A DNA stretch of 7,753 nt from Candidatus Diapherotrites archaeon CG08_land_8_20_14_0_20_30_16 (GTDB lineage Archaea; Iainarchaeota; Iainarchaeia; Iainarchaeales; 0-14-0-20-30-16). The notes below the pieces were generated by a model. It was given only the letters and a program-made list of their open reading frames with translations, did not search any database and was not told where the DNA came from. The stretch covers positions 1 through 7,753 of the forward strand of contig PEXK01000048.1 in NCBI GenBank assembly GCA_002779075.1, in the 5' to 3' direction. How positions within the stretch are numbered: position 1 is the first letter of the stretch; each line of letters begins with the position of its first letter. Positions 1-7,753 of this stretch are shown piece after piece. The position numbers and the translations under genes were made by a program.

Positions 1-308
1 CCTGAAGATTCTAAAGAAGCATCTTTTGCTAGACTAGGATAATTATCATACAAATATTGGCCTGTAAAATCAATCTGAGTATTATCAGAAACAAACCAAG
101 GCAAAACAGAACTGCCTACAAGTTCATAACCACCAACTGACTCGACCTGATAATACAAAGCTGTTTCTTTTTCTATTTCTTCATTTTGCATTTCATAACT
201 AAATTTATTTACTGTGACGTTTGGAACGAATTGCATTTTAATATCATTCTTTGATCCCATTTCATTTTTTATAGTATCTGTTACACTCATATTTAATATT
301 GTCCCTCT
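1..308 (-). other. Start of a C-terminal module conserved between the two tandem paralogues (residues 2248-2349+)
   Basis: The giant ORF reads RGTILNMSV...QFVPNVTV...ALYYQVESVGGYELVGSSVLPWFVSDNTQIDFTGQYLYDNYPSLAKDASLESS. The neighbour reads RGTVLDAKL...GFIPDLAI...SLFYEIIYNGESQIAESSLLPWFVSKESYEKTDFTGQKLFDTYPKVAVQSLSEDN. Shared exact DNA words are ggcctgtaaaatca (59..72 and 7515..7528) and agaaacaaacca (87..98 and 7549..7560). Their spacing differs by 6 nt, which is an in-frame 2-codon indel. Confidence 0.8.
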
Positions 309-3300
309 TTCTGATTCTGAATTCATACTTTTGAAATCAATATCTTTGGAAACATTTAAATGCGCTTTAGGATTTGAAGTTGTGTTATAATTTGAAAGCA
401 TTTGATTATTCAAACTAGCTGAATTTATTGTAATTAAATCACTTGTTTCTGTAAAATCTGAACCATATCCTTGTCTGTCTATTGTTCCATTCTCAACACC
501 AACTCTTCCATCAATTGGCAGGTAATAAAATACAGAATCATTAGTTACTGAGGCAATCTTTTTCAAAACAACCATAACAAAAGCATTATTCAAATCAAAA
601 CTTAATTCAGGATAAACTATATTAAAATGAACTTCATAAAGTCCTGAACCATTGGTCTGTTGGTTCTTTGTATATCCGTTATATATTATTATTCTATTAT
701 TATCAAATAAATTATCCAAGAAAGTATCTTTGATTAACTGCCCAACATTATCTGCAAATTCCGTTTCCAAATATGTTTTCTTGAAATCTTTTAAAAAGTC
801 TTGAGAATAGCCATCGTCAGCTAAATATACTTTGTAATGCAATAAATCCTGTATTGCAAATATTTGATTTTTATTATTTTCATTTATGCTTGGCAAGAAA
901 GTAAACAAATTCATTTTACCATCTGATGAAACAAAAGTAGTTGGGGTTTTTGATAAACATTGGCTCTTTAACACTTTTGCAAATAAATTCAAATCAAAAT
1001 CCATTTTCGAAACTATTTTCTCGTTTCCTGATGCATCAAACAAAGTTACAGTAATATTCAAAGTGTTGTCATAAAGTTGATTATAGCCAGAATTCAAATC
1101 TTTGATATCTAAATCCTTAACTAAAGGTATTTCAACATTCAGATATACTAAATTCGTTCCAACATCAATAGGCACCCCCTCTGACCCATAGTTTACTTGT
1201 ACTTTTTTGCCTGAAGAATCTGTTGCATAAACTTTGTATTGTGGAATTGGTTGAGGAGGATTAGAGGAAGTTAAGAAAATACCTAAATTTTTATCTAAAG
1301 TAATAGTCCAATAACCATCCTTAATACCCACATCTATTTTATCAAAGAAATTTGTACTTAAACCAGGATCTTGAAAATAGTTAATTGTTGATTCTTTATC
1401 TACTTTTTTATAATCTGGAATCATCTGGCATTTTATTCCTGAAAACTCACCCAAAAGGCTTTGTGCAAACTTCAATCTTTTCAAACCAGAAATTAATAAC
1501 TGTGTTGAATCACAATATTGTTTCACATTCCCTTCTACATCAGGGCTACAAAAGTTTTCATCAATACTATCGTCCCATTTATATTGTAATTTTGGTTTTG
1601 CATCAGGACCAGTAAAACCAACAACATCACCAGAAACATTAGTACATGCTTGTCCCACTTTGAAAGAAACCTCTTTTTCTGTGATATTGTGGAAAGCAAC
1701 ACGAATATTTCCTAATAAATGACCATCACCCAATACTCCAGAATTTATATCAATAGGATATGTTTTATAACACCATTCGGAATTGCAAGGCTTGCCATTA
1801 TAAAAAGTATTCAAATCCAAATTTGTGAAGGTTGCTTTAAACATACCAGTACCAGGGTAACCGCCAATAATTTCACCTTGATTTGCTCTTCCCCAAAGCT
1901 CTGACTTTAACTTACATGGAACAACAACATAAGTATCCCATTTAATATTATTAAATGAGCCACCACCACATTTTGGATAAAAAGTAACTGTTTTACCACT
2001 ACTTACTGTCGGGTCTTTGTCCCACCAACAATCATCTTCAGACAGGGTCAATTTAGGATCTGACCACAATATATGTTCTGTATCAACAACATAATCTTGA
2101 GAGCAGGTTAAGCTAAATTTTATGCTATCATCCCAATGTTTTGAACCTGTACAAAACCAGCCCTTACAGCCAACATGCCCTTTTATAACTTCTCTAGCAA
2201 TCAAGAATTGATAATGATCTTGGCCAGTTATTTTAAAAATATCACTGTAATTCGCGGTTCCATCTTCCCTTATTTTTATTGTATTTGTAGTTACGTTAAC
2301 ATCAGGATAATTAAGATCATTTAAAATAACAAATTTGTATTCCTGGTCATCATTTAAGTAAGTAGTAAATGCTGCAATAAATATAGTTATTCCAACCAAA
2401 AGAACACCAGCACCAATTAACCAGCCAACAAGTCTTGTAACTACTGCACCAAGAATATCAGTAGAAGATCCATGTCTAACAAGATCATCCAAATCCCCTA
2501 AATATATTTGGGAGTTTTTATTTTTTATTTGCAAAAGATTAACAAAATTGTTCACATCTGCAATAAAAAGAGAGCTTGGAATATTTGTATTGTAAACTAA
2601 CAATGTGTCTGAAAACAGCTTATTATTTAACTCATTATTTGTTTGGACGTGTGTATCCAAAAAAGGATTTTCAGAAAAAAGACCATTACTGTACGATGTT
2701 TGAACATTAACAGGCAAAATCTTAATCCTCTTATAGGACAGGTCTTTTAGTTGTTTAGCAAATATTTCTAATGCGTAAGCACCTGATACTTGAGGTCTTG
2801 ATATTTCTAATTCATTTTCCTTAGATGATAAAACAAATCCCTTATATAGGCTTGCATTATCAAATTTAAAGCCAGTATATTCATTACCTACATTCTCACC
2901 ACAACCAATTGGTATCTCCTTGTCATTTGCTTTGCAAATCATTATGTCTAGAGTTATTCCTTCACAAATATTTTTGAAAGTTAATTTAAATTTATCTTGA
3001 GGCAAAGCATAAGTTAGTGAACTATCAGGAGTATACTGCCCTAAAGACAAGACTAAAGTCTCTGTTATTTCTTTTCCTTTATCATCAAATACTTTCAAAC
3101 AATCTTCCAAATGCAAAACACTTACATCAAACTTCAATTCTTTTGATTCTACTTTCTTCAAGCCATCAGAAGTATTTACAAATGCAAAAATCTTTGCTTT
3201 CAAATGTTCCCTTCCAAAAATTCCTTTTGGAACAAAAGAAACAGCCCCTAAAAAGGGATTGTCCAGGTCTGCTTTCCAGTTTACTGCAAATATCTCTGGT

Positions 3301-6300
3301 ACTGATAATTTTAAGTTTGTGGTACCAGTTGAAAGACTAAATGAAAAACTGCCAATACCTAAAGAACCTGAATCATGTAGCAAAACTAAATAAGCAGAAT
3401 CAAAAACAACAGGATAAGGTTCTGAATATCCTTTACTGCTTGATTGAACAACACAAGTATTCAAAACAGATAAAGGAATTGTAATAGGTTTTACATCTGT
3501 TGCAAAACTTGTACTTTCAGAACCTGTGTTTAATGCAATTTCTAAACAGCCATCATCAGCATTAGTAGGATATCCCTGTGATACTATATTAATTTCAAAA
3601 GGAATTAATCTATTTATTGTCTCATCTTGAGTTCTAAATGTTACTTTGACAGCTCCAGAAAATTTAATTCCTTTTCCAATCTCAGCACTAATGTTATCAT
3701 TCAAAACTGCTTTAAAGAAGTCTTCCAATTCTAATTTAGCAATACCCGGCAGAGCGCCAACAGAATCATAATTCAATTGTATTCCTTGGATTTCTTTGTT
3801 TACGTATGTATTTGATAGATATGCTTTCATTACATCAATATTCAAAAAATTCTGCAAATTTAATGAATAATTATCAACTTGTAAATCTACGCTTTCTATT
3901 TTCAGTGTGGATGCACTATTATTTGTAATTATTAAACTGTCATAACCTTCTTTGTCTGTTGGATAAATCAAATCAATACTTAACTTTTCTTTATCAAACC
4001 CCAATATTTTGGTTGTTACTTGCAAATCCGGAGTAAAATCTTTTTGAGAATAAGATTCATAACCTTCTTTCTCAACTAATATCTGTACCAAAGTCCCAGG
4101 CGGCAAAGATGGAAGTAAACAGTCTGCTTTTCCTTGCAAATCTGTTTTTATATTTCTACAATCCCCTAAAACAAAATATGTTGTATCTGTTGGTTTCTTT
4201 ATTTTAACAGTAACAAGAGCGTCTTTTACAAAAGAATTTGTATCATCACTTACTGAAATACTTAAATTCTGTTGAATCCCGGGTGCCAATATTTTCTCGG
4301 GGAATACAGTCAAATTCAATTTTTTTGTTGTTGTTGATTTAAACAAAACAGATAATGCAGACTTATTATTTATTACCATTTTTTTATCATTATCTAAAAC
4401 AACAAAATTCAAAAAAGACTCCCCTAAAATAACTGGTTGCAAGCCTAATTGTCCAGAAATATATCTGTTCTTTATGTAATCTTTTATTTGATAACCCTTT
4501 ACAAATACACCAAAACTTTCCACCAAAGATTCAGATTTATTATCTGTTGGGCCTTTCAAATTATAATTCAAAAGTCTAATAAAAGAATGACTAGAAACAT
4601 CATTTTCAACAAAGGAAAGGGTTTCTTTTTGAGATTGTGCATTGAATATCTGCAGTGTGCCATTTTTTATAGTATTATCAGGACCACTTAAATTATTTGT
4701 CAAATCAAATGCAAACTCGTATTTTGTGTTTGGAGAAACTAAAAATTGGTCTTTTCCTTGTGATTCTAAATACAAATTAGTACTTTTATTAAGAAGAGTA
4801 TATCTTGAACAAAAATCATTATCTGTGCAAACACCAGATGCTCCTGCTAAAAATTCTTTTATTTCTGATGCAACACTTATATCATCAATTAACAAATCCC
4901 AACTAATCTTCAAAGAATCAAGAATTTTTACTGAACCATCATTCTTTACTTTCACTTTATAATATACATTATAAACTCCTGGATTTGTTTCATTCCAAAA
5001 TGATGAAATTATTTTTGCTTTGCCTATGGTGTTTTGTTCCATTTTGGAATCCAAATATTTTAAATCATAATTTGCAGAAGTATATGCATCTATTAATGAA
5101 AGTTTTTCAGCATCCAAATTTTGGTCATCGCCAACATTTAATTTGAATTCAAAAGGTTTTGATTCATACATATAAATCTTGAAACCTAAATAATAAATCC
5201 CGCCAATATTCAAACTAGGTTCTTCTGCACCTTCGAAATCACTAAAAATACCCAAGAAATCTACTTTTGGTTCTGCTTGTGTTAAAGGAACCATTGAAAC
5301 AGTGCTTTGCCAATTATAATTAGTCATTAACAAACGGGACTCACTGTAATAAGGTAGATAATTATCTGCTTTAACAATATAGTATAAGGAGGTGCCGGCT
5401 TTGAAAGAATGGGTTGTTTCGCCAGATGCGCTCAAAATCTTGCTTCCAGATTCTGTTAATGGTTTTTTATAAAATGTAACTAAAGCATTACTTTTTGGAT
5501 TATTTGATTCATCTGTTACTTTCAATTTCAACATAGAATAGCCTACAGGTAAAACTATATTGACATCTAATTCAGGAATTTTATCTGATTCTGCACCACT
5601 TAAAACAACAGTATTACTATATGCTTCATTAAAACCATTATATACTCTAAATTGATAGCTTCCAATTTGTAAAAGTGATGTTGACAAACCATTTTTATCT
5701 GTTGCAGGAAAGTTATCCAAAGATAATAATTCAAACTGTGTTGCAGGATCAATAACAAATACTTTTGCACCTTCTATAGGTAGATTGTCTTCATCCAACA
5801 CTTTAACATTAACTTTGACACTGTTATACAAAGTCTTTGTTTTTAGTGTGAAGATTTTTTCATTAAAAGAAGAATTAATTTGAATTTCATTATTTGCTAA
5901 AGCAAAAACTGAGTTTGAATCTGGTTCAAAATCCAAAAAATAATTATCTAATTTTGATACAGGAATACTTATTGCTCCATTCGATGTTGTGCCTTTGAAA
6001 ACTATTTTGCCTGTATTGTCTTTTAGCACTGAGTTCCCATTTATGTGCACATTGTTTTCATCAACAAAAGACAGAGAAACTATTTTTGCAAAAGTGTTCT
6101 CCAATGTAAAAACAATATTATTTACTTTATTTTCACTTGTTTTTATTTGTTGTGATGTATCCAAATAATCTTCTTTGGAAGCATAAACAATATAATTCCC
6201 AACAGGAAGATTTGTAAATAATTTTGTATTTCCAAAATCATTAGTTGTATCTTTATCTATTTCTTCTTTTTGGTTTTGAGCATCAAAGATACTTACTTTA

Positions 6301-7049
6301 GCACCAGAAACTGGCATAGCATTTACATCATAAACAGTTACTTTTATACTTCCTGCTGGCAAAGATGTTTGATTTTCTAAAACCTGTGTAATTAACCCTA
6401 AAGTAACAACACAAGATGTTGAATCACATGTCTCGCCAGACAATACTTTGTACCCATCTATTTGAACACTTATTCCTAAAATACCACAATTTTCAGGAAC
6501 ATTTATTGTTGTTGAACCAGAAGAAACATTTCTTTCTTTTTGAGCATCACCCAATTCTGTTGAGTCACAATTAAAACTTATATGTGCTGTTTTTGTTATT
6601 GTAATTCCTGATTCATCAAACAAAAAGATTGTTGTTGGCAGCATTTTGTAAATTCTATTCAAAGAAACATTAATAGTATCTGAGAAATCATATTCTGATT
6701 TTGAAATTGCATATTTCTTTATTGATATTGATTCAAGCGAAAGTTTATCGCTAACAGGCAATTCTAAAATAGCTTTTCCTTTTATTGCTTTCCCATCAAA
6801 TGTATTTCCATTTACATTTACACTGAAATCAAAACTCTCCACTAATTGGATGTTGTCTGATTTGAAAATAAATGTAACTTGTTCCTTTGAAGGAATTAAC
6901 AACCAAACAACCAAGCCTATAATTAATAAAATAACAACACATAATACAATCTTCAAAACTAGGCTAGATTTGATCTTCTCAACAAAGGACTTAAAAAAAG
7001 TCTTTGTTTGCTCAAAACTGTAGCTTTGTTTGTTATCTTCTAAAGGCAT
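1..7049 (-). CDS. Giant membrane-anchored, repeat-containing surface/adhesin-like protein; at least 2349 aa, 3' end cut by the window edge; absent from the supplied ORF track
   Basis: Manual translation of the reverse complement from ATG 7049..7047 gives 2349 sense codons plus 2 leftover nt (7049 = 3 x 2349 + 2). No TAA, TAG or TGA occurs in frame. The nearest upstream in-frame stop is TAA at 7094..7092, with no canonical start between it and the ATG. Residue numbering was checked against TGG codons at 5310..5312 (W580), 3276..3278 (W1258) and 2133..2135 (W1639). In DNA this AT-rich, an open frame of this length cannot be chance. The translation begins MPLEDNKQSYSFEQTKTFFKSFVEKIKSSLVLKIVLCVVILLIIGLVVWLLIPSKEQ. 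The product name is inferred from architecture only. Confidence 0.9.
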   Translation of the reverse strand, partial: MPLEDNKQSYSFEQTKTFFKSFVEKIKSSLVLKIVLCVVILLIIGLVVWLLIPSKEQVTFIFKSDNIQLVESFDFSVNVNGNTFDGKAIKGKAILELPVSDKLSLESISIKKYAISKSEYDFSDTINVSLNRIYKMLPTTIFLFDESGITITKTAHISFNCDSTELGDAQKERNVSSGSTTINVPENCGILGISVQIDGYKVLSGETCDSTSCVVTLGLITQVLENQTSLPAGSIKVTVYDVNAMPVSGAKVSIFDAQNQKEEIDKDTTNDFGNTKLFTNLPVGNYIVYASKEDYLDTSQQIKTSENKVNNIVFTLENTFAKIVSLSFVDENNVHINGNSVLKDNTGKIVFKGTTSNGAISIPVSKLDNYFLDFEPDSNSVFALANNEIQINSSFNEKIFTLKTKTLYNSVKVNVKVLDEDNLPIEGAKVFVIDPATQFELLSLDNFPATDKNGLSTSLLQIGSYQFRVYNGFNEAYSNTVVLSGAESDKIPELDVNIVLPVGYSMLKLKVTDESNNPKSNALVTFYKKPLTESGSKILSASGETTHSFKAGTSLYYIVKADNYLPYYSESRLLMTNYNWQSTVSMVPLTQAEPKVDFLGIFSDFEGAEEPSLNIGGIYYLGFKIYMYESKPFEFKLNVGDDQNLDAEKLSLIDAYTSANYDLKYLDSKMEQNTIGKAKIISSFWNETNPGVYNVYYKVKVKNDGSVKILDSLKISWDLLIDDISVASEIKEFLAGASGVCTDNDFCSRYTLLNKSTNLYLESQGKDQFLVSPNTKYEFAFDLTNNLSGPDNTIKNGTLQIFNAQSQKETLSFVENDVSSHSFIRLLNYNLKGPTDNKSESLVESFGVFVKGYQIKDYIKNRYISGQLGLQPVILGESFLNFVVLDNDKKMVINNKSALSVLFKSTTTKKLNLTVFPEKILAPGIQQNLSISVSDDTNSFVKDALVTVKIKKPTDTTYFVLGDCRNIKTDLQGKADCLLPSLPPGTLVQILVEKEGYESYSQKDFTPDLQVTTKILGFDKEKLSIDLIYPTDKEGYDSLIITNNSASTLKIESVDLQVDNYSLNLQNFLNIDVMKAYLSNTYVNKEIQGIQLNYDSVGALPGIAKLELEDFFKAVLNDNISAEIGKGIKFSGAVKVTFRTQDETINRLIPFEINIVSQGYPTNADDGCLEIALNTGSESTSFATDVKPITIPLSVLNTCVVQSSSKGYSEPYPVVFDSAYLVLLHDSGSLGIGSFSFSLSTGTTNLKLSVPEIFAVNWKADLDNPFLGAVSFVPKGIFGREHLKAKIFAFVNTSDGLKKVESKELKFDVSVLHLEDCLKVFDDKGKEITETLVLSLGQYTPDSSLTYALPQDKFKLTFKNICEGITLDIMICKANDKEIPIGCGENVGNEYTGFKFDNASLYKGFVLSSKENELEISRPQVSGAYALEIFAKQLKDLSYKRIKILPVNVQTSYSNGLFSENPFLDTHVQTNNELNNKLFSDTLLVYNTNIPSSLFIADVNNFVNLLQIKNKNSQIYLGDLDDLVRHGSSTDILGAVVTRLVGWLIGAGVLLVGITIFIAAFTTYLNDDQEYKFVILNDLNYPDVNVTTNTIKIREDGTANYSDIFKITGQDHYQFLIAREVIKGHVGCKGWFCTGSKHWDDSIKFSLTCSQDYVVDTEHILWSDPKLTLSEDDCWWDKDPTVSSGKTVTFYPKCGGGSFNNIKWDTYVVVPCKLKSELWGRANQGEIIGGYPGTGMFKATFTNLDLNTFYNGKPCNSEWCYKTYPIDINSGVLGDGHLLGNIRVAFHNITEKEVSFKVGQACTNVSGDVVGFTGPDAKPKLQYKWDDSIDENFCSPDVEGNVKQYCDSTQLLISGLKRLKFAQSLLGEFSGIKCQMIPDYKKVDKESTINYFQDPGLSTNFFDKIDVGIKDGYWTITLDKNLGIFLTSSNPPQPIPQYKVYATDSSGKKVQVNYGSEGVPIDVGTNLVYLNVEIPLVKDLDIKDLNSGYNQLYDNTLNITVTLFDASGNEKIVSKMDFDLNLFAKVLKSQCLSKTPTTFVSSDGKMNLFTFLPSINENNKNQIFAIQDLLHYKVYLADDGYSQDFLKDFKKTYLETEFADNVGQLIKDTFLDNLFDNNRIIIYNGYTKNQQTNGSGLYEVHFNIVYPELSFDLNNAFVMVVLKKIASVTNDSVFYYLPIDGRVGVENGTIDRQGYGSDFTETSDLITINSASLNNQMLSNYNTTSNPKAHLNVSKDIDFKSMNSESERGTILNMSVTDTIKNEMGSKNDIKMQFVPNVTVNKFSYEMQNEEIEKETALYYQVESVGGYELVGSSVLPWFVSDNTQIDFTGQYLYDNYPSLAKDASLESS
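1428..2168 (-). other. Cys/Trp-rich module (residues 1628-1874) with a recurring K-x-W-D-[DT]...C motif; no family recognised
   Basis: There are 12 Cys (1628, 1633, 1649, 1674, 1694, 1712, 1755, 1760, 1802, 1834, 1846, 1874) and 9 Trp (1631-1825) in about 250 aa. The ~1490 aa between the two helices hold only 4 Trp. Motif copies are SKHWDDSIKFSLTC, NIKWDTYVVVPC and QYKWDDSIDENFC. Two C-x4-C pairs occur (CKGWFC, CNSEWC). Confidence 0.6.
2364..2432 (-). other. Internal hydrophobic, transmembrane-like helix (residues 1540-1562) splitting the giant protein into ~1490-aa and >785-aa parts
   Basis: The segment LVGWLIGAGVLLVGITIFIAAFT is 23 uncharged residues. It is flanked by ...DILGAVVTR on the N side and YLNDDQEYK on the C side. 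The Y1564 codon at 2358..2360 is in frame. Confidence 0.7.
4020..4319 (-). other. Fifth, isolated carboxypeptidase-regulatory-like / PEGA-like repeat (residues 911-1010)
   Basis: The segment reads LNLTVFPEKILAPGIQQNLSISVSDDTNSFVKDALVTVKIKKPTDTTYFVLGDCRNIKTDLQGKADCLLPSLPPGTLVQILVEKEGYESY. The ending V-E-K-E-G-Y-E resembles the PEGA signature. An inserted Cys pair is present (C964/C977). Confidence 0.5.
5283..6350 (-). other. Four consecutive carboxypeptidase-regulatory-like / PEGA-like beta-sandwich repeats (residues 234-317, 322-405, 411-500, 505-589)
   Basis: Units of about 85 aa recur with the family pattern: alternating hydrophobic strand, D-x-N-x-P-[VI]-x-G-A-x-V, T-[DN]-x-x-G, G-x-Y, then Y. 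Examples are SIKVTVYDVNAMPVSGAKVSIFD...GNYIVYASKEDY and VKVNVKVLDEDNLPIEGAKVFVID...TDKNGLSTSLLQIGSYQFRVY. Others are KLKVTDESNNPKSNALVTFY...YYIVKADNYLPY and VSLSFVDENNVHINGNSVLKDNTGKIVFKGTTSNGAISIP. The nt boundaries are 6099..6350, 5835..6086, 5550..5819 and 5283..5537. Assignment is by eye, not by HMM. Confidence 0.6.
6894..6962 (-). other. N-terminal transmembrane signal-anchor helix (residues ~30-52) of the giant protein
   Basis: The segment LVLKIVLCVVILLIIGLVVWLLI is 23 mostly hydrophobic residues with one Lys near its N-terminal end. It follows a Lys-rich 29-aa tail (KTFFKSFVEKIKSS) and is followed by PSKEQ. No obvious AxA signal-peptidase site was seen. Confidence 0.75.
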
Positions 7050-7060
7050 AATACCACGAG

Positions 7061-7080
7061 TGTTCTTTCCTGTTCTTTCC
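7061..7080. repeat. Perfect 2 x 10-bp tandem direct repeat (tgttctttcc tgttctttcc; minus strand GGAAAGAACA x2) 12 nt upstream of the giant ORF start
   Basis: Read directly from the sequence. Positions 7061..7070 and 7071..7080 are identical. The repeat lies between the TATA-like element (7081..7088) and the ATG at 7049. Confidence 0.9.
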
Positions 7081-7110
7081 TTTATAAATATTTAATAGTC
7101 TTTTATATAT
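7081..7110 (-). promoter_or_regulatory. Candidate promoter for the giant ORF: palindromic TATA-like octamer tttataaa (7081..7088) plus a second AT-rich box (minus strand ATATATAAAA, 7110..7101)
   Basis: The minus strand reads ...ATATATAAAAGACTATTAAATATTTATAAAGGAAAGAACAGGAAAGAACACTCGTGGTATTATG. TTTATAAA resembles the archaeal TATA consensus (TTTAWATA-like). It is centred about 35 nt before the ATG, which would imply a leader of only ~8-10 nt. No convincing bacterial -35 (TTGACA-like) sits 17 bp upstream of a -10. No strong GGAGG lies 5-10 nt before the ATG. The call is speculative without transcript data. Confidence 0.3.
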
Positions 7111-7132
7111 TTAACTATTATTACACTAAACA

Positions 7133-7146
7133 GCATAATTTTATGC
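7133..7146 (-). terminator. Small perfect palindrome gcataattttatgc downstream of the upstream gene's stop; weak hairpin-terminator candidate
   Basis: The GCATAA/TTATGC arms are separated by 2 nt, giving in practice a ~5-bp stem with a 4-nt loop. The palindrome begins 34 nt after the TAG at 7182..7180. On the minus strand it is followed by TGTTTAG, which is only a short T run. The stem is AT-rich and short, so predicted stability is low. Confidence 0.2.
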
Positions 7147-7179
7147 GTTGGAAGTCACTTTTTGGGGTTATGTACACTA

Positions 7180-7753
7180 CTAATGAGGTTCATTAACAAA
7201 TACTCTTGTGCTTAACTCGTTTCCTGAAATACAAAGCAAATTAGAATCTATACCCTCTAAGACACTATTGAGATTTTCTATACCAAACTCTTTAGTATTA
7301 TTTATCTTTATGTTTGGATTTTCTAAATTAACTGTCTTTACATCTTCTATTAGAACAGAAGCATTGCTTGGAGCATAAATATAAGAATAAATGTTATAAT
7401 CTGCTAAATCTGTTACAGCTTCTTTAGTGTATTCTATTTTTGATGCTTTATTTGACACATTATCTTCAGATAATGATTGAACTGCAACTTTAGGATAGGT
7501 ATCAAAGAGTTTCTGGCCTGTAAAATCAGTTTTTTCATAGCTTTCTTTAGAAACAAACCAGGGTAAAAGGGAGCTTTCTGCAATCTGTGATTCTCCATTA
7601 TATATTATTTCATAGAAAAGACTTACAGGAGAATCTATTTGCTTGTTTTTCATTTTTGCTTCTGCTTTCCAAATTGCTAAATCAGGGATAAACCCAATAG
7701 AAATGATATTAGTGGGTGCTTTAGACAATTTAGCATCTAAAACAGTGCCTCTT
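7180..7753 (-). CDS. C-terminal 190 codons plus stop of an upstream paralogue of the giant protein; 5' end cut by the window edge
   Basis: This is track ORF 7180..7728, but position 7728 is a TTG. The frame stays open upstream to the edge (RGTVLDAK precedes it), so the listed start is an artefact. The stop is TAG at 7182..7180. The product aligns with the giant ORF tail: RGT[IV]L, then LPWFVS, DFTGQ-L-D-YP. Confidence 0.85.
   Translation of the reverse strand, partial: RGTVLDAKLSKAPTNIISIGFIPDLAIWKAEAKMKNKQIDSPVSLFYEIIYNGESQIAESSLLPWFVSKESYEKTDFTGQKLFDTYPKVAVQSLSEDNVSNKASKIEYTKEAVTDLADYNIYSYIYAPSNASVLIEDVKTVNLENPNIKINNTKEFGIENLNSVLEGIDSNLLCISGNELSTRVFVNEPH

Follow-up and report, generated by a model that had tools for sequence, protein, structure and literature searches.

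Descriptions of DPANN surface proteins are, to our knowledge, very few, although these archaea rely on physical contact with other cells. One protein that has been described is the Micrarchaeota surface-layer (S-layer) protein SLP_Mh, a glycosylated DPANN surface protein of 101 kDa with an N-terminal hydrophobic segment, which is related to PF05123 and contains almost no sulfur-containing residues (bioRxiv 10.1101/2021.04.28.441871). The proteins considered here differ from it in that they form a separate family, are rich in Cys and are 2-3 times larger. We have analysed a stretch of 7,753 nucleotides (the window) from Candidatus Diapherotrites archaeon CG08_land_8_20_14_0_20_30_16 (GenBank assembly GCA_002779075.1, contig PEXK01000048.1, positions 1 to 7,753 of the forward strand), most of which is occupied by the minus-strand gene for one such giant protein, and have focused on a hydrophobic segment within that protein, at residues 1540-1562 (2364..2432, minus strand).

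A preliminary description of the window, made from the sequence and a list of its open reading frames (ORFs), had presented this segment as a topology paradox: if the N-terminal anchor leaves the N-terminus inside the cell, then a second membrane helix would place everything that follows, including a module with twelve Cys, in the cytoplasm. Three explanations were offered, namely a cytoplasmic metal-binding module coupled to a surface receptor, proteolytic maturation into two subunits, or a hydrophobic segment that does not span the membrane. Comparison with relatives leads us to favour, by a modest balance, a reading that takes the segment for the second, surviving helix of a hairpin or loop at a seam joining two exported units, with the C-terminal part of the protein (the C-module) outside the cell.

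Results

The giant gene starts with an ATG at position 7049 of the minus strand and continues for 2349 codons without a stop up to the left edge of the window, where it exits (1..7049; residues 1-2349 of 2443). The full-length database copy, P0001, has 2443 amino acids (aa). A Lys-rich N-terminal region of 29 aa precedes a signal anchor at residues 30-52 (6894..6962, minus), in which the Kyte-Doolittle mean over 19 residues reaches 3.55 at residues 34-52. The segment at 1540-1562 (LVGWLIGAGVLLVGITIFIAAFT) comes second with 2.48, the rest of the window protein does not exceed 1.3, and the hydrophobicity profile of all 2443 aa of P0001 revealed no C-terminal hydrophobic segment. On the Hessa biological scale the sum for the segment is roughly -2 kcal/mol, which is insertion-competent; all sums on this scale given here are approximate. 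R1539 stands directly before the helix and TYLNDDQEY follows it, with the acidic motif NDDQE at residues 1566-1570 (2340..2354, minus) taking the form DDxQE in the clade and a flank of acidic character being found family-wide. Beyond the helix there are 787 residues in the window and 881 in P0001, and the Cys module, as delimited by Cys count and orthologue alignment, holds 12 Cys at residues 1628-1874 (1428..2168, minus). On each of these points the preliminary description, which had reported the helix, more than 785 aa behind it, the twelve Cys and flanking charges that run against the positive-inside rule, is borne out.

Hydrophobicity alone is statistically weak, with 144 of 2000 residue shuffles of the window protein, which is rich in I, L and V, (7%) giving a 19-mer of at least 2.48 (shuffle p ~0.07), and the case for a real feature therefore rests on the conservation of its position. 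The question of whether relatives conserve the helix, which had been raised from the start, has a divided answer. The segment is found in position in all eight close orthologues and in 38 of 95 members of the wider family, and it is weak or absent in the others.

The eight orthologues are P0002, P0003, P0004, P0005, P0006, P0008 and one ORF in each of two loci, L002 from a Candidatus Diapherotrites metagenome-assembled genome (MAG) and L003 from an uncultured archaeon. Their identity to the window protein is 25-40% over the C-terminal part that was compared (over the full length for P0002). P0002, P0004, P0005, P0006 and P0008 are full-length, the L003 ORF has at least 2500 aa, and P0003 and the L002 ORF are fragments. 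In the alignment, all eight carry a first helix, a turn and a second helix at the homologous place. Helix 1 is rich in Gly, Ala and Thr, whilst helix 2 is stronger and is followed by a few small residues and DDxQE. The turn between them reads IPVAGW in P0003, P0004, P0008 and the L002 ORF and IPVWGW in P0006, and is sometimes preceded by a poly-Ala/Gly linker of up to ~60 aa. The window protein aligns with helix 2 only, along the pattern GW...small residues...DDxQE. Relative to P0002, a deletion of at least 18 residues takes out helix 1 and leaves the remnant ILGAVVTR at residues 1532-1539 (2433..2456, minus), a region in which the orthologues are 18 to ~80 residues longer. A pair of helices, each 18 residues or longer and connected by a short turn, is consequently a property of the eight orthologues and not of the window protein which, to judge by these alignments, is the outlier of its own clade, its first helix having been lost. 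Rough Hessa sums for helix 2 in the orthologues are insertion-competent and lie between -1.2 and -2.3, with the exception of P0006 (+1.45), and those for helix 1 are marginal; an AlphaFold model of the corresponding region of P0004, of low confidence, shows a helix at 108-128, a loop and a helix at 138-155. The concern that an unrecognised frameshift had fused two separate genes can be set aside as an artefact ruled out by six further relatives, P0002, P0004, P0005, P0006, P0008 and the L003 ORF, each of which encodes the same architecture in one unbroken ORF.

With the C-terminal 900 aa as query, an exhaustive profile search recovered 315 cluster representatives with an E of 1e-3 or lower, and 207 with an E of 1e-10 or lower. 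Most members have 2000-3250 aa, nearly all of the full-length ones have an N-terminal hydrophobic segment, and the giants often stand in tandem with other giant genes. Those that carry a name in their source are 'hypothetical' or 'carboxypeptidase regulatory-like domain-containing' proteins from MAGs of Candidatus Diapherotrites and Candidatus Micrarchaeota. The family is defined by the C-module motifs GxTG..A.PK...W...C...YCD(S/A)TQ, LL.F.AYL.DG(Y/F)S.DF..DF, FYY.P.DG.VG, RQGYG and a terminal ..C(I/V)s...f.(W)N, all of which the window protein has, and profile searches found no counterpart of the C-module or the seam in Pfam, NCBIfam or the PDB. A metagenome scan found no further loci.

In 95 members the seam was located as the end of the most hydrophobic 19-mer upstream of YCD(S/A)TQ. 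This point lies a median of 212 aa before that motif and ~840 aa from the C-terminus, and the stretch that ends there is membrane-grade in 38 members, weaker and Gly/Ala/Met-rich in 30, and slight or missing in 27. Gly/Ala-rich low-complexity sequence occupies the seam in some members and one to three membrane-grade helices in others, and between 17 and 150 aa at this site are free of charge. In many distant members the stretch is bracketed by two conserved Cys, the first immediately in front of it (..A[SDN][LV]C[AED]W.E..) and the second immediately behind it (..(D/E)DPC...DY[VI]INL); in P0054 all that lies between the two is a hydrophilic loop of 20 aa, and the window clade is without both. 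The element can thus be long, short, weak or absent while its flanks are conserved, from which we infer that the membrane has both of its ends on one side. That placement draws on comparison of the sequences in three respects, the paired Cys, the members without a loop and the exported C-module. As a separate observation, many distant members (P0039, P0086, P0087, P0089, P0094, P0107 and P0138) carry CPxC (WCPPC, WCPVC, WCPAC, FCPPC, NPCIPC or GCPVC), a thioredoxin-like or metal-type motif within the hydrophobic stretch, at the N-terminal edge of the strong helix.

The location of the C-module was addressed through family members that consist of little else. We took as stand-alone C-modules the Met-initiated members of 700-1200 aa (n=39) and judged signal peptides from sequence features. 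A classical signal peptide, with a basic n-region, a hydrophobic core, a small-x-small end and acidic residues next, begins 25 of the 39 (2 with a lipobox); examples of such ends, with a slash at the boundary, are ..VSA/DE, ..IYA/DD and ..VNA/DS. One gene of this kind, P0016, is complete: an in-frame stop precedes it by 12 nucleotides (nt), it has a TATA-like box, and the Diapherotrites contig on which it is found encodes a 2453-aa giant as well. Its product aligns collinearly with window-protein residues ~1590-2254. Directly after the signal peptides of stand-alone members there is a Gly-rich, moderately hydrophobic stretch, for example LIGGNIGVSIALGAVTGVV with a Kyte-Doolittle value of 1.82, which is seen at residues 25-125 of P0016, at residues 28-75 of P0066 and in the N-termini of P0022, P0079 and P0069; the mature stand-alone proteins would therefore open with this hydrophobic, Gly-rich sequence.

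A split version of the whole architecture is found at the locus L005 (GCA_015657915.1, NPIE01004308.1, 3110-10892), where an N-unit of 1616 aa is followed, after 40 nt, by the 963-aa P0066 with its Sec signal peptide. The 1616-aa stalk protein has an N-terminal anchor and beta-sandwich domains and ends in an acidic tail, with no C-terminal anchor. The pair is collinear with residues 1-1467 and 1625-2290 of P0089, in which the hydrophobic loop occupies 1456-1518, and at the split a true stop and the 40-nt spacer are followed by a new start and its signal peptide. The break falls at the hydrophobic loop, and the seam is therefore a natural point of fission or fusion.

The distribution of Cys was also informative. 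In the orthologue alignment, Cys are gained or lost solely as pairs, both after the seam (1628+1633, 1755+1760, 1874+2031 and 2093+2101) and before it (1508+1515 and 1520+1525). Ten Cys of the 12-Cys module are conserved, with all ten present in eight of nine proteins and seven of them in all nine. Counting all Cys beyond the N-terminal anchor gives an even number in 31 of the 38 giants with a strong internal helix, and counting either half alone does so in 13-15 of the 38; an even total with uneven halves suggests a disulfide across the seam in many members. We did not retain the parity of the C-part alone as an argument, since it is even in just 15 of 38 distant members. Over 42 giants, the 15 residues after the helix contain 21 K/R against 128 D/E and are net negative in 38, and this acidic downstream flank is, by its charge, the signature of a flank that faces outwards. 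Domain profile searches detected no Cys/His metal-binding motif and no cytoplasmic domain family in the C-module, and some relatives without a hydrophobic stretch keep the C-module. Taken together, the signal peptides, the split version, the paired Cys and the acidic flank indicate that the C-module is almost certainly extracytoplasmic.

Residues 1441-2443 were modelled with AlphaFold from an alignment of 54 sequences. The model is mostly beta, with a mean predicted local distance difference test (pLDDT) score of 76.7, a predicted template modelling (pTM) score of 0.76 and pLDDT values of ~90 in its final 400 residues. Within the model the hydrophobic segment, at positions 88-125, has a pLDDT of 24-35 and no secondary structure, the domains on either side of it fold well, and what follows the helix is predominantly beta and contains no long helices of the heptad type. 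That the segment might be a helix in the core of some soluble domain, a possibility which the preliminary description had proposed to check by structure prediction, was rejected, as the segment is not buried and is unstructured between well-folded domains. In Foldseek searches, neither the PDB nor the viral models offered a meaningful match or any similarity to fusion proteins, and no match came from searching PDB sequences with profiles, so the fold of the C-module has no characterised relative.

Elsewhere in the window, which has a G+C content of ~30%, the giant gene encodes a prealbumin-like beta-sandwich, CarboxypepD_reg, at residues 234-317 (6099..6350, minus; PF13620, E 9.5e-18), which at 64.8 bits against a Pfam gathering cut-off of 32.3 is the sole Pfam match in the protein. 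The 12-Cys module contains the family motif GFTG..AKPK...W....C....YCDSTQ, common to distant members too. The best-conserved domain of the family, at residues ~2055-2330 (60..887, minus; FAIQDLLHY...FYYLPIDGRVG...RGTILN), is common to more than 200 cluster representatives and is modelled with a pLDDT of ~90. The 2443-codon ORF is intact in two independent assemblies, and the window protein differs from P0001 at nine of 2349 shared residues. All nine differences fall within residues 1466-2303 (window 1..2652), the first 1465 residues being identical, and three cluster at 1675-1680, beside the conserved Cys1674; relaxed or diversifying selection, or recombination, could account for this clustering in the C-part.

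Upstream of the gene, the intergenic region at 7050..7179 (minus) contains TTTATAAA, which resembles a TATA box, at 7088..7081 and ~36 nt ahead of the ATG; a tandem GGAAAGAAC x2 at about 7080-7062 separates the two, and the arrangement suggests a putative promoter with a very short leader. Beyond it lies the 3' end of a second, tandem family member (7180..7753, minus), the last 190 aa of which match the family profile in hmmsearch with an E of 1.5e-35 and are 43% identical to P0005 and 34% to P0001. The genome, as read from this fragment, holds two tandem family copies, of which the window gene is the more diverged. Orthologues head a conserved run of 2-3 giant genes (~2400, 2150 and 1100-2000 aa), as at L001 6045-23040, on the contig of P0006 and at L003 5651-16593, and all of these giants have N-terminal anchors and beta-sandwich domains. 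The C-terminal parts of the downstream giants of L001 are not detectably related to the C-module, and we left these proteins unused as evidence. An NOG1-type GTPase, HicAB and other toxin-antitoxin pairs, AbiEii and AAA_14/STAND NTPases recur in the flanks of L001, L004 and L006, and the neighbourhood of giant and stand-alone loci is conserved across Diapherotrites contigs.

Discussion

We have demonstrated that the hydrophobic segment has positional homologues, that the loop to which it belongs is variable and dispensable across the family, that the C-module is of an exported kind, that Cys are paired on both flanks, and that the segment lies outside any folded domain. The reading that we favour would divide the protein into two exported units, the first an N-terminally anchored stalk of ~1500 aa that is rich in beta-sandwich domains, and the second a Cys-rich head module of ~880 aa. 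The seam between them would, in the family at large, be a variable Gly/Ala-rich hydrophobic loop with both of its ends at the outer side of the membrane. In the nearest orthologues this loop may take the form of a membrane hairpin, with helix 1 running from outside to inside and helix 2 returning from inside to outside as a signal peptide would. What is left in the window protein would then be a vestigial half-hairpin, which its charges (R before, DD/E after) would orient N-in to C-out, again like a signal peptide, and which would not be a stop-transfer anchor. In this protein the helix may lie within or upon the membrane of its own cell and yet not draw the C-module into the cytoplasm, perhaps as a re-entrant, interfacial or 'frustrated' translocated segment, and may act as a secondary tether between stalk and head.

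Several considerations weigh against this proposal. A helix of 23 residues and about -2 kcal/mol that follows a translocated domain would classically be a stop-transfer sequence, a single spanning helix cannot leave both of its ends outside, and the 8-aa remnant of helix 1 is too short for a return crossing. The hairpin of the orthologues is itself drawn from hydrophobicity and a low-confidence model (pLDDT ~30), and their helix 1 is just marginally hydrophobic. The confinement of all nine allelic differences to residues 1466-2303 may, in addition, reflect relaxed constraint on the C-part.

It is possible, though unlikely, that the segment is instead an internal export signal, with cleavage by signal peptidase or a rhomboid-type protease at the small-residue end of helix 2. 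The products would be a membrane-anchored stalk and a head that is released or held non-covalently, or that could be disulfide-linked in distant members, where the Cys just before and just after the loop could join both chains. The seam is a point of fission or fusion, the separate C-unit has a signal peptide of the cleavable type, and the internal helices end in small and then acidic residues as the stand-alone signal peptides do (ALAS..DD, SAS..ND, AAFTTYLNDD, ALAG/DPC and LFG/EDPC). In the window protein R1539 stands in front of a hydrophobic region (h-region) of 23 aa, and IAA/F or AFT/T would be possible cleavage sites. An h-region of this length is, however, long for a cleaved signal, and with helix 1 missing helix 2 would not start in the cytoplasm, as a signal peptide must; the window clade, moreover, is without the flanking Cys. 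Maturation into two subunits, the second of the explanations first offered, has nevertheless become a plausible idea, to which the fission/fusion seam and the signal-peptide-like end of the helix both contribute.

We consider it decidedly unlikely that the Gly/Ala-rich loop inserts into the membrane of a host cell in the manner of an internal fusion loop, thereby aiding the membrane contact of symbiotic archaea. The composition of the loop, its charge-free length of 17 to 150 aa and its absence from some paralogues would suit such a role, as would the Gly-rich hydrophobic stretch right after the stand-alone signal peptides and the confinement of the family to DPANN lineages, and the Cys-loop-Cys arrangement of distant members recalls the disulfide-bounded internal fusion loops of Ebola GP2 and of avian sarcoma/leukosis virus (ASLV) Env. 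If this were the case, then the loop, disulfide-stapled in many members, might help small Diapherotrites and Micrarchaeota attach to or bridge into their partners. However, Foldseek found no similarity to fusion proteins in the PDB or among viral models, and the region after the helix, being mostly beta, offers no long heptad-type helices. A membrane-grade hairpin would also, as a rule, be trapped on its way out in the membrane of the cell that makes it, and Diapherotrites may have no hosts.

We give little credence to the suggestion that the window protein is a decaying paralogue, the diverged one of two tandem genes, in which the loss of helix 1 broke the topology and left a helix that is functionless now. 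Such a history might be read from the upstream tandem gene, which in the same region is nearer to P0005 than the window protein and P0001 are, from the window protein alone being without helix 1, and from the accumulation of allelic differences after residue 1465. Against this, two independent assemblies both show an unbroken ORF of 2443 codons, the family motifs are kept together with all 10 core Cys, and the gain of a new Cys pair (1628+1633) is unlike neutral decay. Finally, a true single-pass type-I protein with the 881-aa Cys-rich module in the cytoplasm, for example as a metal-binding domain coupled to a surface receptor, is very unlikely because the C-module lies, by all appearances, outside the cell: a single 23-residue helix of transmembrane-grade hydrophobicity with no later hydrophobic segment (no peak >1.3) would be in keeping with it, but it is contradicted by the stand-alone and split homologues with Sec signal peptides, the gain and loss of Cys in pairs, an acidic downstream flank (NDDQE; 21 K/R against 128 D/E in the family) opposite to the positive-inside rule, the members that keep the module without the helix, and the lack of any detected Cys/His metal-binding motif or cytoplasmic domain family.

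The topology paradox of the preliminary description was well founded insofar as a plain type-I reading does not fit, but it largely dissolves once relatives are compared, and it seems to have been mostly an artefact of viewing one degenerate member alone. The proposal of a hydrophobic segment that does not span the membrane fits best of the three, in the sense that the segment is no type-I anchor; more exactly, it would be the surviving helix 2 of a hairpin or loop. Our analyses define a large unannotated family, with at least 315 clusters of giant, tandemly encoded, Cys-rich surface proteins, in which a hydrophobic stretch in the middle of the ectodomain marks the seam between two exported units and has been fused, split, lengthened, shortened and deleted repeatedly. 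For annotation, this means that the C-module should not be called cytoplasmic. The seam also provides a defined element with which questions of membrane tethering, cleavage or host-membrane insertion can be asked in the context of DPANN cell-cell contact. Literature searches found no description of the family, its seam or its fission/fusion history, all of which appear to be undescribed, and no such protein is named in a paper on the nanotubes of ARM-1.

The principles involved, namely hairpin anchors, internal signal sequences and disulfide-bounded hydrophobic loops, are already known, and the family can be set beside several systems that embody them. Surface proteins with PF13620 domains occur in archaea and bacteria and have lent their name to some relatives, and the window protein resembles them in having one such domain at 234-317, which makes up less than 4% of its length. 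The fusion loops of class I viral proteins such as Ebola GP2 and ASLV Env are likewise Gly/Ala-rich hydrophobic stretches inside an ectodomain, flanked by Cys on both sides as in distant family members. The loop of the present family, at up to 150 aa, far exceeds them in length and variability, has no coiled-coil after it and belongs to proteins with no C-terminal anchor and no match in fold, and in the window clade it is without the flanking Cys.

Re-entrant or monotopic hairpins of ~30 residues, of the caveolin, stomatin and reticulon type, find a parallel in the charge-poor stretch of 31 residues that the window protein retains, in which ILGAVVTR and LVGW..AAFT, with GAG at the centre, could enter a single leaflet and bring both ends out on the same side. 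The known hairpins enter from the cytoplasmic face, whereas here both ends would be outside, and the 23-aa part aligns as a complete helix 2 and not as two half-helices. An internal hydrophobic hairpin or signal is also a feature of viral glycoprotein precursors such as bunyavirus Gn-Gc, alphavirus p62-6K-E1 and flavivirus prM-E. The archaeal proteins share no sequence or fold similarity with these precursors, are cellular and reach ~2400 aa, any cleavage in them is hypothetical, and the window protein has the second helix only. The order of parts is nonetheless alike, running from an export signal and a first ectodomain through a stop-transfer helix, a turn and a signal-like helix to a second ectodomain, and in both cases the second helix ends in small residues and the two ectodomains can be separate polypeptides.

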